Positions 32,941 through 52,206 of a stretch of 64,000 nt of DNA are shown in pieces; position 1 is the stretch's first letter, and each line of letters begins with the position of its first letter. The stretch lies in NCBI GenBank assembly GCA_963666275.2, contig CAXXOA010000001.1:96001-160000 (forward strand), given 5' to 3'. A program made the position numbers and the translations under genes. The notes under the pieces are model-generated. The model searched no databases, was not told where the DNA came from, and saw nothing but the letters and a program-made list of their open reading frames with translations. The stretch is from Oceanispirochaeta sp. (GTDB taxonomy: Bacteria > Spirochaetota > Spirochaetia > DSM-2461).

Positions 32941-33060
32941 TAAAAAATAGAAGGTTCAGAACCAACTGTACTTTTTTAGTTTTTCAAGGGACCGAGGGGG
33001 ACTCGCCATCCCTGGCCAGTTGCGCGGCAGGGATTCGCGCTGTAATACCGTTCTTATTGC
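32941..33060 (-). repeat. Degenerate tRNA-linked repeat unit downstream of tRNA-Cys
   Basis: Degenerate copy of the tRNA-Cys trailer and 3' end (accgagggggactc versus gccgagcggactc), followed by gccatccctggc..gcgc..ttcgcgc..ccg motifs shared with the tRNA-fMet repeats. Confidence 0.7.
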
Positions 33061-33108
33061 TTATAAAATAAAAAAGTCCAGCCTGAGCTGAACTTTTTTG
33101 TTTTTGAG

Positions 33109-33181
33109 AGGCGCCGAGCGGACTCGAACCGCTGAATGATGGATTTGCAATCCACTCCCTTAGCCGCTTGGGTACGGCGCC
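33109..33181 (-). tRNA. tRNA-Cys (GCA)
   Basis: GGCGCCG acceptor stem, GTGGA-TTGCAAA-TCCAT anticodon arm, GGTTCGAGTCC T arm, U73; CCA not encoded. Confidence 0.95.
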
Positions 33182-33270
33182 GTCTTGTGGGATGAAATAT
33201 AACAAATGCGGTGATGTTTGTCCAGCAGGATAGGCGAGTTTTTTTATAGACACATAATTTGTCTTGGCAT

Positions 33271-38178: not shown

Positions 38179-38180
38179 AG

Positions 38181-38253
38181 CTCCCCCGAACAGACTCGAA
38201 CTGCTGACATGGTGGTTAACAGCCACCCGCTCTACCGACTGAGCTACAGGGGA
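38181..38253 (-). tRNA. tRNA-Asn (GTT)
   Basis: TCCCCTG acceptor stem, GGTGG-CTGTTAA-CCACC anticodon arm, TTCGAGT T loop; TTGACA-N17-TATATT promoter upstream. Confidence 0.95.
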
Positions 38254-49464: not shown

Positions 49465-50667
49465 ATGAAAAAAATACGTGTTATTACAGTTTGTCTTTTC
49501 TTTCTCTCTTTTGCCCTGAATGCGGAAGTCCTGCGGGAACTTCAGGTGGAGGGACTGAATAAAACCAGGATCTCTACTGTGAAGGGGATCATCGGTTATG
49601 ATATCGGGGACCAGATCGATAAGGCCGGGAAAGAGGATATCCGGCAGAATCTCCTGAAGTCGGGACTCTTTATAAATGAAACAATTAAGGTGGATCTTAC
49701 AACAAGCGGTGACGATGCCTATCTGAGAATATCTCTTCATGACAGGATCACCCTTCTGCCCATTCCCATAGCCAGTGTGAGCGACGGCAGCTACAGCGGA
49801 GGCCTTTTTGTCATGGACAGGAATTTTCTGGGGCTGGGGCATCAGCTGTTTGCCGGGGGGATGATCAGTTCGGATGACAGAATGTTTATGCTGGGCTACA
49901 CAAATCCCTCGCTGAAAAGGAGTGCTTTTCAGGCGGGAGGCAGTATGAGTGCTTTTATGGCGGATGAAACAGTGACAGATATCAGCGGAAAGGATGATCT
50001 GGCCGAATATGAATACCAGACTGTGAGCGGAGGGATCTCTGCCGGCTGGGAATCCGGTTCCATACGCCTGGGGCTGCAGTCCAGGGTGTATTTTCTGGAT
50101 GTTTCTTTTTCCGATCAGGATGCTTTTGTGTTTCATCCCGAAGTATCAGCGGAATACAGCAACTTATATTATGATACCTACTTCGATAGGGGTGTGAAAG
50201 CGTCGCTCTCCTATGGGATTGACAGCTATACGGATGTATTTGATTTTACCCAGACGGCAGAGGCTCAAATCTCCTACCATCACCTGCTGCATCCGAAATG
50301 GCAGGTTCAGTTCAATGGAGATATGGCAATTTCAGAAGGAGATCCTCTTCAGTCTCTCTCCCTGGGCCAGGGCTCCTGCGGCTCCATTCTTCCTGATACT
50401 GTTCTGGCTGACCGGTTTGTACAGGGAAATCTCAAGCTGATGTATGCGGCTCTGGATTTTTCCTGGGGATACATTGCCGTTCCTATGGCCTATCAGGTGG
50501 GGATCCTGGATGGGATGAGCGGAGACAATGCGTTCTATCACGGGCCTTCAGCAGGAGTGTCTCTCTATCTGAAAAAGGTTGCGATTCCGGCTATGTCCAT
50601 TCAGTATGCTTCAAATATAGAGACAGGGAAGGGGCTTTTTTCCTTCAGTATAGGAATGGAGATGTAA
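49465..50667 (+). CDS. Outer-membrane protein with one POTRA-like domain and a beta-barrel (Omp85/BamA-like)
   Basis: Signal peptide; V.GL.KTR POTRA-like start; DRNFLGLG motif; alternating aromatic beta-strands; C-terminal FSFSIGMEM. Confidence 0.7.
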   Translation: MKKIRVITVCLFFLSFALNAEVLRELQVEGLNKTRISTVKGIIGYDIGDQIDKAGKEDIRQNLLKSGLFINETIKVDLTTSGDDAYLRISLHDRITLLPIPIASVSDGSYSGGLFVMDRNFLGLGHQLFAGGMISSDDRMFMLGYTNPSLKRSAFQAGGSMSAFMADETVTDISGKDDLAEYEYQTVSGGISAGWESGSIRLGLQSRVYFLDVSFSDQDAFVFHPEVSAEYSNLYYDTYFDRGVKASLSYGIDSYTDVFDFTQTAEAQISYHHLLHPKWQVQFNGDMAISEGDPLQSLSLGQGSCGSILPDTVLADRFVQGNLKLMYAALDFSWGYIAVPMAYQVGILDGMSGDNAFYHGPSAGVSLYLKKVAIPAMSIQYASNIETGKGLFSFSIGMEM

Positions 50668-50696
50668 TTTTCCTTTCTAGTTGTGTATGAAAAAGA

Positions 50697-51131
50697 GGTT
50701 ATAAAAGCTAAAGGGACCCTTGCGGATCCCTTTGGTTTTCTCTTTTTAGCAGGGGTAGGACTCCTGTCCAGTCATTGGATCGTGCCGATTCCTTCCCAGC
50801 CGGCTTCATAGACTAAATCGACGTCCTGTCGATTTGCGCTCCAGGTATTCGCGCCGTCTATTCCGCTTCGAGTCCTACCCCGTAAATTGGTTATAAAAGC
50901 TAAAGGGACCCTTGCGGATCCCTTTGGTTTTTTCTTTTTAGCAGGGGTAGGACTCCTGTCCAGTCATCGGCATCGTGCCGATTCCTTCCCAGCCGGCTTC
51001 ATAGACTAAATCGACGTCCTGTCGATTTGCGCTCCAGGTATTCGCGCCGTCTATTCCGCTTCGAGTCCTACCCCGTAAATTGGTTATAAAAGCTAAAGGG
51101 ACCCTTGCGGATCCCTTTGGTTTTTTCTTTT
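50697..51131 (-). repeat. Tandem tRNA-linked repeat array 1 (two ~192-193-bp units plus the tRNA trailer)
   Basis: Units begin at 50697, 50889 and 51082. Each has the terminator hairpin aaagggacccttgcggatcccttt and 17 nt of the tRNA 3' end; the two full units continue with the payload and an inverted T-arm copy. Confidence 0.95.
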
Positions 51132-51204
51132 TAGCAGGGGTAGGACTCGAACCTACGGCCTTCGGGTTATGAGCCCGACGAGCTGCCAACTGCTCCACCC
51201 TGCG
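51132..51204 (-). tRNA. Initiator tRNA-fMet (CAT), copy 1
   Basis: C1:U72 mismatch, three G-C pairs in the anticodon stem (TCGGG-CTCATAA-CCCGA), A73; own TTGACG-N17-TATATT promoter. Confidence 0.95.
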
Positions 51205-51578
51205 TCGTGTGTCACATGAATATATAGATAATAGGAATTCTCGTCAAGAGAAAGTTTGAAAAAAGTTTTTTCTGCTGATGAAAGAGAGATCTAAATGCAT
51301 ATTCAGATTAAAATTAAACAATAAAAAAAGTGCGACTCCCCTGCTTCAGGAAAGTGCACTGATTCTGTTCTGTGAAGACAGATTACTTGACTATCGTATC
51401 AACATACAGTCTGTGGAGGCATTGTTGCTTTCATCATCATTCATATCATCATTCTCTGAAAACACATGGGTGTCATAAGAAACAAGATTCCCATCTTCAA
51501 AATAATTATTTTTGCTGTTATGTGATGATGAAGAAAAACCCCGGTCCCTGAACGGAGCCGAAGGGCTCTCTGTTTTTA

Positions 51579-52072
51579 TTATAAAAAGCAAAAGGGACCC
51601 TTGCGGATCCCTTTGATTTTTTGTTTTTAGCAGGGGCTTATTTTATGGTTTCGGCAAAGGAATTGCAGACTCGCTTTTATTCGTCGGCATCGTGCCTCCT
51701 CATAAAAGCCGTCTCCGGGGTATTCGGCCATCCCTGGCCTCAGCGCTCCAGTGGAGATCGTTCCTCGGTGCCCTGCGGTACGACTCCTTTTCGCGCAAAC
51801 CCCTCCGCTTCGAGTCCTACCCCTGGGGTTGGTTCTAAAAGCAAAAGGGACCCTTGCGGATCCCTTTGTTTTTTTGTTTTTAGCAGGGGTAGGACTCCTG
51901 TCCAGTCATCGGCATCGTGCCGATTCCTTCCCAGCCGGCTTGATAGACTAAATCGACGTCCTGTCGATTTGCGCTCCAGGTATTCGCGCCGTCTATTCCG
52001 CTTCGAGTCCTACCCCGTAAATTGGTTATAAAAGCAAAAGGGACCCTTGCGGATCCCTTTGTTTTTTGTTTT
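51579..52072 (-). repeat. Tandem tRNA-linked repeat array 2 (one divergent ~250-bp unit, one standard 193-bp unit, trailer)
   Basis: Units begin at ~51579, 51831 and 52024. Confidence 0.93.
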
Positions 52073-52145
52073 TAGCAGGGGTAGGACTCGAACCTACGGC
52101 CTTCGGGTTATGAGCCCGACGAGCTGCCAACTGCTCCACCCTGCG
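52073..52145 (-). tRNA. Initiator tRNA-fMet (CAT), copy 2
   Basis: Identical to copy 1; own TTGACT-N17-TACCCT promoter-like sequence. Confidence 0.95.
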
Positions 52146-52206
52146 TCGTGTCTGGAGAGGGTATAGGTTTCGGCATTTTTAGTCAAGGGTTCTGAGTTTT
52201 TTCTTT

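Follow-up and report, generated by a model that had tools for sequence, protein, structure and literature searches.

A putative remnant of a folded non-coding cassette behind the tRNA-Cys gene of Oceanispirochaeta sp. and related units at tRNA and tmRNA 3' ends in Spirochaetota

Integrative elements that target tRNA and tmRNA genes, such as prophages, islands and gene-less cis-mobilisable derivatives, insert at the 3' end of the gene, which is rebuilt by a 3' end borne on the element; a direct repeat begins within the T-loop, the gene's own 3' end and terminator come to lie farther downstream, and elements may accrete in tandem. The same traits were found for a short non-coding cassette, a fragment of which lies behind the tRNA-Cys gene in a stretch of 64,000 nt from Oceanispirochaeta sp. 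(GenBank assembly GCA_963666275.2, contig CAXXOA010000001.1, positions 96,001–160,000 of the forward strand; the window). It differs from the integrative elements in that the insert is just 160–190 bp and contains no integrase or other open reading frame (ORF) and no room for one, in that one core family is found at about 25 targets, in that the direct copy of the tRNA end has an inverted counterpart with which it pairs, and in that the interior is a fold supported by covariation. The reading we favour, to which we give an even chance, is that positions 32941–33107 of the window are the wreck of a member of an undescribed family of non-coding cassettes at the 3' ends of Spirochaetota tRNA and tmRNA genes, with an att-type mode of movement, a core that acts as RNA and a 5' arm that is under selection.

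The attP hairpin of CTX-type phages and the attC sites of integrons also have inverted arms that fold into a duplex copying the target, form arrays and conserve structure over sequence in their stems, but the target of the cassette is a tRNA 3' end and not dif or attI, no involvement of Xer or IntI is known, and the loop between its arms holds a large conserved core of several helices. Miniature inverted-repeat transposable elements (MITEs) are likewise short, non-coding and multi-copy, with inverted ends and many decayed copies, whereas the cassette has inverted ends that vary by copy and match the neighbouring tRNA, keeps its conserved part in the interior and occupies sites that are not dispersed. 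With these tRNA-specific arms and tRNA 3'-end sites the family was not assigned to MITEs, the exception being a core-containing MITE in one genome (G024, see below). The Y RNA YrlA resembles the cassette as a non-coding RNA of ~100–150 nt with paired ends and borrowed tRNA-like features (PMC4201824). It mimics the D and T arms and is encoded beside a Ro60 gene, while the cassette copies the 3' strand of the acceptor and T region alone and has a core in place of the T-loop. Identity with a Y RNA was rejected, there being no TROVE/Ro60 (PF05731) match in the 97%-complete genome and no Rfam match.

In its intact form the cassette directly follows N73, the discriminator base of the host gene, and consists, in the order of the tRNA strand, of a terminator (usually present), an A/T-rich spacer, a 5' arm, the core and a 3' arm, followed by the displaced native terminator of the host; the terminator of the cassette then serves the tRNA. 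The payload, here called the unit, is a folded stretch of ~135 nt. When the nine full units of this genome were aligned by reference and folded with RNAalifold, 40 pairs were predicted, 27 of them with compensatory changes. The layout comprises a closing helix P1, a short P1b, a helix P2 enclosing the hairpins P3 and P4, and a second domain made up of P5 and P6. P3 is built of GCGC stems and closed by a near-invariant loop of 11 nt, the loops of P4 and P6 resemble each other and are of the type CA(N)GGAYG, and the core between the arms, helices P2 to P6, measures ~110 nt. In a broad alignment of 106 model matches from 77 sources (98 distinct rows), 88.6% of the paired cells could pair, compared with 64.2% in shuffles (0/500 as high) and at most 41.8% when partners were slid, and both-sided changes occur in 36 of the 40 modelled pairs; this alignment was fitted to the model and so favours structure, the margin still being large. 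With Rfam 15 only the four tRNAs were found over the whole window at the gathering threshold, and at E up to 10 nothing above noise covered a unit over positions 50600–52200. A hammerhead or other known ribozyme was rejected, as there was no Rfam match. The unit family is undescribed among the Rfam 15 families and in the full-text literature examined, supplements excluded.

P1 is formed by the 5' arm paired with the 3' arm. The 3' arm is a direct repeat of positions 56/57–73 of the neighbouring tRNA (~17–18 nt) and ends at N73 plus 0–2 nt. It shares a median of 17.5 identical nt with this tRNA, the maximum being 11 when units are paired with other tRNAs, and for the inverted arm the mean is 10.2 compared with 6.1 in the control; the ends thus fit the adjacent gene and no other, as had been proposed in the preliminary description of the window, which was made from its letters alone. 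The junction it had placed in the T-loop was also recovered, 53 of the 61 units whose direct arm measures 12 nt or more starting at position 56 (35 units) or 57 (18 units) and the rest at 55 (one), 59 (five) or 60 (two). The 5' arm is complementary to tRNA positions 54 to about 63–70, covering the whole T-loop first and then extending outward. Counted from position 57, P1 has a median length of 11 bp (range 6–18), long 5' arms of 15–19 nt also occur, and the P1 helices of 61 first units together comprise 595 Watson-Crick pairs, 29 G.U pairs and 36 internal mismatches. Judged from its sequence, so uneven a 5' arm (6–18 bp, with wobbles and mismatches) looks more like an arm that has evolved or decayed than like a fresh templated copy. 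That the 5' arm copies the tRNA's own 5' strands is disfavoured by the sole informative case, tRNA-Leu-CAG, which has G49.U65 while the 5' arm of its unit carries the Watson-Crick complement. A primer-binding site was ruled out, the 5' arm not reaching positions 69–76, and so was origin as a fold-back or giant palindrome, the spacer and terminator before the 5' arm not being the reverse complement of the sequence after the 3' arm.

All features of the window given in the following lie on the minus strand. The tRNA-Cys (GCA) gene at 33108–33181 (ARAGORN; Rfam tRNA, 60.7 bits) has a sigma-70-like promoter at 33224–33196 and is followed directly by terminator T1 (33070–33099), a 13-pair terminator-like hairpin and a T run, of a type also present 3' of tRNA-Cys in G003, G004 and G010 (G000 being the genome of the window and G001–G010 the 10 other genomes of the genus). 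Next comes an A/T-rich spacer, delimited by inspection at 33041–33069, which ends at the point from which the 5' arm and the beginning of a unit have been lost; it lacks the complement of the tRNA-Cys T-loop, whereas this complement is present at the orthologous locus in G003, G004, G005, G007, G008 and G010. Beyond it, at 33000–33040, lies a unit remnant consisting of P3 (GCGC stems, 11-nt loop) and P4 with its CA(N)GGAYG-type loop, identified with R1, a covariance model built from nine other units of the genome with the Cys locus left out. This match scored 23.1 bits (E 9.5e-5, 64-kb window, filters off), the next best unrelated match in the window reaching 10.9 bits (E 0.25); over the whole 5.27-Mb genome its E value was 0.0078, and a sequence-only profile gave no better than 0.33 genome-wide. 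It spans positions 28–68 of the 138 model positions, so that the 5' arm, P2, P5 and P6 are absent, and P4 directly abuts a decayed direct arm at 32985–33004, in which alignment shows tRNA-Cys positions 57–73 copied with several changes and a 1-nt indel. The decayed second terminator T2 (32941–32984, aligned with T1) has a core stretch in common with the terminators behind tRNA-Cys in G007 and G004 and probably represents the older, native terminator, now displaced. Because only P3 and P4 are kept and P1 cannot form, the Cys copy is almost certainly a dead, non-functional remnant.

The preliminary description had taken 32941–33004 for a decayed duplicate of the tRNA-Cys terminator and 3' end. 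This held: the local alignment with 33060–33128 scores 36, while shuffles gave a mean of 12.3 and a maximum of 24, with 0/2000 reaching 36. The copy begins at G57 (gactc on the plus strand), the T-loop position at which the units behind the tRNA-Met genes, called fMet in that description, also break. The R1 match supports the homology it had proposed between 33005–33050 and the tRNA-Met payload, and its alignment of the two is correct, P3 lying on P3 and P4 on P4 of the variant unit at 51656–51823. Its claim of a unit with Cys-specific ends needs correction, the Cys copy being a fragment without a 5' arm, fused to a decayed 3' arm, and not a whole unit. The covariation-supported fold, the mutual pairing of the two ends and the truncation of the Cys copy had escaped it. 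The tRNA-Asn gene at 38180–38253, reported there as having no unit, is indeed unit-free (ARAGORN, model search) and serves as an internal negative control.

The Cys locus was compared in the 10 other genomes of the genus, with ligA on its other side. Full units with Cys-matched arms occur in two (G007, G010), remnants in four (G003, G004, G005, G008), the window adding a fifth, and the locus is empty in four (G001, G002, G006, G009). The remnants comprise the 5' arm and first part of a variant unit (G004), the 5' arm and a divergent unit (G008), a partial arm and half of P3 (G003) and the 5' arm alone (G005). At the tmRNA locus the empty state of G004 reads tmRNA, native terminator and flank, and in the occupied state of G000 a new terminator, a spacer, a 5' arm, a core and a 3' arm stand, in this order, between the tmRNA and that same terminator and flank. 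A 19-nt repeat of the tmRNA 3' end borders the 160 extra nt on both sides, that is, they form an insertion at the 3' end with a gene-restoring direct repeat at its borders, as in elements that target tRNA genes. A tRNA-Met pair in G004 has one empty site and one stub (terminator, spacer and 17-nt 5' arm, then flank), and an array of at least 10 units with a 180-nt period is present in L032. Simple slippage, which the preliminary description had already set aside, is excluded because the ends are tRNA-specific, the junction lies in the T-loop and occupied, partly decayed and empty orthologous loci all exist.

Searches beyond the window tied the unit to tRNA and tmRNA genes. When the 1500 nt downstream of all 61 tRNA genes in the 5.27-Mb genome were scanned for copies of the gene's own 3' end, these were found behind Met, Gly-CCC, a second Met species, Asp, Gly-GCC and others, and inverted copies were found as well; the preliminary description had named an absence of the element from other tRNAs as fatal to its proposal. 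A profile search added one unit behind the tmRNA gene, and each of the 12 model matches in the genome directly follows a tRNA or tmRNA gene. Of 41 related genomes, with G000 counted among them, 29 were found to carry the unit, in as many as 32 matches per genome, and within the family of G000 it was found in 23 of the other 24 genomes. An even sample of the phylum added nine of 150 further genomes (E up to 1e-5), other classes included; at all 11 loci retrieved from more distant families and other classes, a tRNA or tmRNA gene of the same orientation lies 18–79 nt before it. In a pattern scan of 185,579 species genomes, 80 loci were listed of 105 matching stretches, and 32 of those 80 match the model. 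All strong ones bear Spirochaet- names or Salinispira, and two weak non-spirochaete matches (21.6 and 19.3 bits) were treated as chance. An upstream tRNA or tmRNA on the same strand was called by ARAGORN for 91 of the 106 matches, within 80 nt for 61 of those 91. Of the other 15, 13 show an upstream tRNA or tmRNA 3' end by inspection, the gene being cut by the fetched piece, masked, or a tRNA-Leu missed by ARAGORN, and two lie inside a MITE. One payload family is accordingly found, as had been claimed, behind different genes: Cys, Met, Gly, Asp, Leu, Arg, Ser, Glu, Pro, Val, Ala, Thr, Gln and tmRNA. Eight pattern matches in viral contigs included no real unit and none near a tRNA, and phage and plasmid records (blastn, distant mode) gave no match to the unit.

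Some observations were made alongside. The tRNA-Leu genes not called by ARAGORN (L190, L192, L033, L027, L184) have a normal 3' half (variable arm, T arm, acceptor), before which stand 150–250 nt of conserved sequence unlike a tRNA; these genes may contain an intron or be split. In G033 three identical units (L186, L187, L188) stand behind three copies of tRNA-Ala-TGC, which suggests that they lie within a repeated rRNA-operon spacer. The MITE of G024 is ~290 bp long with 19-bp terminal inverted repeats and contains the unit core; it occurs at L030:1374-1665 and in no fewer than 25 further places of that genome, besides about 20 shorter derivatives without the core.

That the units are instead ancient, immobile, purely host-functional RNA genes linked to tRNAs, whose arms track the tRNA through gene conversion and selection and whose presence or absence reflects loss alone, would agree with the strongly conserved fold and with the orthologous unit-tRNA pairs common to species of the genus (Asp, Leu-CAG, Val, Gly-GCC, Leu-GAG). 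We consider it very improbable, given that the cores are far more alike than their tRNAs and partly cluster by genome, that the indel at the tmRNA locus is clean, repeat-bounded and accompanied by a foreign terminator, that the core occurs within a MITE of at least 25 copies in one genome, and that the distribution over the phylum is as patchy as the sample of 150 indicates. A core tree (103 rows, 109 columns, three short rows dropped) gave a mixed and weak signal on vertical descent versus horizontal movement.

In the favoured reading the cassette would enter and leave by recombination within the 17–20-nt repeat of the tRNA 3' end, like the att sites of tRNA-integrating elements. As it has no gene of its own, a trans-acting enzyme or host homologous recombination would be needed for this. 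Arrays would grow by unequal crossing-over, and stubs and fragments, the Cys copy among them, would be the products of deletions. The folded core would work as an RNA transcribed with the tRNA or just behind it, protein binding being the best guess for its role, and selection for P1 would keep the 5' arm complementary to the tRNA-derived 3' arm.

Several points weigh against this reading, concerning first the movement and then the nature and role of the core. An att-type cassette requires a lineage pre-adapted to each of at least 25 targets and gives no account of how new targets are gained, and no recombinase was identified. The breakpoints of stubs cluster at the junction of 5' arm and core, which hints at a specific cutting or joining site for which an att-type crossover has no need. 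The core tree mixes tRNA types within genomes, and this, weak as the tree is, suggests transfers between tRNA loci. The last two points agree better with a target-templated or guide-directed mobile element, in which the core and a short 5' arm complementary to the T-loop would be mobile, the arm would pair with the T-loop/T-stem strand and insertion after N73 would duplicate positions 56/57–73 as a target-site duplication, the 3' arm always being derived from the target and any tRNA being open to attack. Such an element would also account for a 3' arm that equals the neighbouring tRNA in nearly all intact units and for repeat borders that both lie on tRNA landmarks. Furthermore, the inner 9–10 nt of the 5' arm complement the nearly universal T-loop and many P1 helices have just 6–8 bp, and therefore one arm could serve several tRNAs; the T-loop and first T-stem bases of the tmRNA, for example, recur in seven genes of this genome. 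However, no enzyme or catalytic motif was identified for it, the insertion brings a terminator and spacer that do not derive from the target, we know of no transposase that makes a 17–20-nt target duplication with fixed ends, 5' arms of 15–19 nt would have to be templated or to evolve later, and no unit was seen whose arms mismatch its tRNA as those of a fresh mis-targeted insertion would. Taken together we regard such an element as unlikely. The preliminary description had argued for a T-loop-directed, target-templated mechanism; the T-loop junction and the target-matched ends remain of this, and the ends may possibly be copied from the target at insertion.

The one clean pair of empty and occupied loci would fit a target duplication and an att-type crossover of a pre-armed element equally well. 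The uneven 5' arm and its wobbles lean toward the att-type crossover with selection, and the clustered breakpoints toward templating or duplication. A further version, which we hold to be quite unlikely, is a protein-less mobile element guided by nucleic-acid pairing that re-arms itself for each target tRNA gene or transcript; its 5' arm would pair with the T-loop/T-stem strand of the target, the core would bring the 3' end of the core to T-loop position 56/57, and the last 17–18 nt of the tRNA would be copied on insertion after N73. If true, the cassette would be a naturally programmable insertion system for tRNA 3' ends.

As to the RNA nature of the core in the favoured att-type reading, G.U pairs number 94 and A.C pairs 80 outside the unvalidated P1b, G.U showing no excess over other mismatch types, and P1 has 14 G.U-type against 9 A.C-type pairs, so the pair statistics contain neither a wobble signature of RNA nor a strand asymmetry. 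Expression of the units is putative, no full sigma-70-like promoter having been found before units and 53 of 63 first units being preceded by a T-run of at least 5. On the other hand, the constant co-orientation with the tRNA, the terminator after each unit and the short terminator-free gap at some loci, all features of the sequence, would favour transcription.

The absence of a G.U excess is what DNA pairing would give, and the fold might then matter in single-stranded DNA, P1 rebuilding the duplex of the tRNA gene segment while a tyrosine recombinase of the host or an HUH enzyme exchanges one strand with the tRNA gene, after the model of the folded attP of CTX-type phages, which mimics dif, and of the folding attC sites of integrons. 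One top-strand exchange within positions 57–73 would yield the observed order of tRNA, T1, spacer, 5' arm, core, 3' arm and native terminator; tandem arrays are likewise in keeping with it, and the genome harbours seven Y1 (HUH) transposase-like genes, while in G003 such a gene lies just downstream of the truncated unit at the Cys locus. There, in L146, short G-rich tandem repeats come after the truncated unit, and beyond them lies an ORF with an IS200/RAYT-like HUH motif. Against a single-stranded DNA element stand the lack of any profile or model match near the seven Y1 genes, whose flanks were not aligned with the core (an observation that bears as well on kinship with IS200/IS605-derived PATEs), the lack of units on phage and plasmid records and viral contigs, a retargeting problem that is the same as for the att model, and the constant orientation of terminator-followed units along the tRNA, which fits transcription. 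We therefore think it decidedly unlikely. A retron or other reverse-transcriptase-linked non-coding RNA was rejected, since the 12 RVT_1 matches of the genome lie elsewhere and units only beside tRNA and tmRNA genes. These matches are in open frames of ~445–473 aa at C1:1038709-1061022, C3:188423-192273 and C3:270738-275274, outside the window, eight of them within 22 kb and some with identical scores; the frames probably belong to group II introns or another repeat bearing a reverse transcriptase.

A possible protein partner for a transcribed core is CsrA. The P4 and P6 loops look like high-affinity CsrA sites, and arrays would then act as CsrA sponges. The published SELEX (in vitro selection) consensus is RUACARGGAUGU with GGA in a hairpin loop, and a CsrA dimer can bridge two sites 10–63 nt apart (PMC7652899). 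The closing pair and loop of P4 fit CA(N)GGANG in 76 of the 98 rows and those of P6 in 43, GGA occurs 6.8 times per unit compared with 4.2 in shuffles, and csrA is present in this genome. The CsrB and RsmZ small RNAs are similar in having GGA motifs in SELEX-fitting hairpin loops, two such loops lying ~45–50 nt apart in the unit, where arrays multiply the sites; the unit differs in that it has no Rfam Csr/Rsm match and just two hairpin sites, one often without GGA, and the CsrB and RsmZ RNAs have no counterpart to its complex conserved core and tRNA-derived closing helix. To be counted against a role with CsrA are 30 of 98 P6 loops that read CACGATG and lack GGA, two unit-bearing genomes (85% and 95% complete) without a csrA match, and the near-invariant P3 loop, which CsrA binding does not explain; csrA itself is found in 36 of 41 related genomes regardless of the unit and is uninformative. 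From these resemblances we would propose a CsrA sponge only tentatively and consider it rather doubtful.

Apart from the Cys locus, the units of the window form tandem 193-nt repeats behind both tRNA-Met genes. Copy a of tRNA-Met (CAT), at 51132–51204 (ARAGORN, Rfam) with a promoter-like site at 51247–51219, is followed by two full units, a1 at 50938–51074 (R1 146.9 bits; RNA fold of -63.3 kcal/mol, z -6.8) and a2 at 50746–50881 (R1 130.9 bits). Copy b at 52073–52145 (ARAGORN, Rfam) is also followed by two, the full unit b1 at 51880–52016 (R1 144.9 bits), whose 15-nt and 17-nt arms match tRNA-Met, and the variant unit b2 at 51656–51823 (R1 57.1 bits; alignment; inverted repeat I1/I2), which has an insertion of ~40 nt in the P3 loop, a 17-nt 5' arm and a degenerate 3' arm. 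Variants of the b2 type, with the P3-loop insertion of ~40 nt, are also found in L144 behind tRNA-Cys of G004, hence at two tRNAs in two genomes. One terminator hairpin (repeat family D2, 50710–52060) is present in six copies, one per tRNA-Met and one per unit, at 52037–52060, 51844–51867, 51591–51614, 51095–51118, 50902–50925 and 50710–50733, and terminator-like sites in this region number 11 where 2.4 are expected.

Elsewhere in the genome stubs close some arrays (Met species c, Gly-CCC). A heavily decayed unit with a 16-nt direct arm, missed by the model, lies behind the second tRNA-Gly-GCC (C2:974872-975023, L005), and 5'-arm stubs lie behind tRNA-Arg-CCG (C1 after 2236648) and possibly tRNA-Arg-TCT (C2 before 1445580). 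A TTATAA-like motif often follows the T-run of tRNA terminators in this genome, with or without a unit, the unit-free cases being Val-TAC, Asn, Leu-CAA and Leu-GAG; it could be the footprint of a lost unit, a -10-like element or a plain part of the terminator.

The cassette adds to the phylum a widespread, multi-copy folded element that is covered by no RNA database family, and it accounts for the odd "pseudo-tRNA ends" and the repeated terminators that follow tRNA genes in spirochaetes. It raises the question of how a gene-less cassette of 160 bp reaches some 25 tRNAs with tRNA-matched arms each time. FliW is the CsrA antagonist discussed for this phylum, which is flagellated and bears FliW; should the unit work as RNA, it may supply the RNA antagonist of CsrA that has been missing there, or else mimic tRNA ends in a new way. 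Should it be a DNA element, tRNA genes may turn out to receive site-specific insertions by a route of a new kind.

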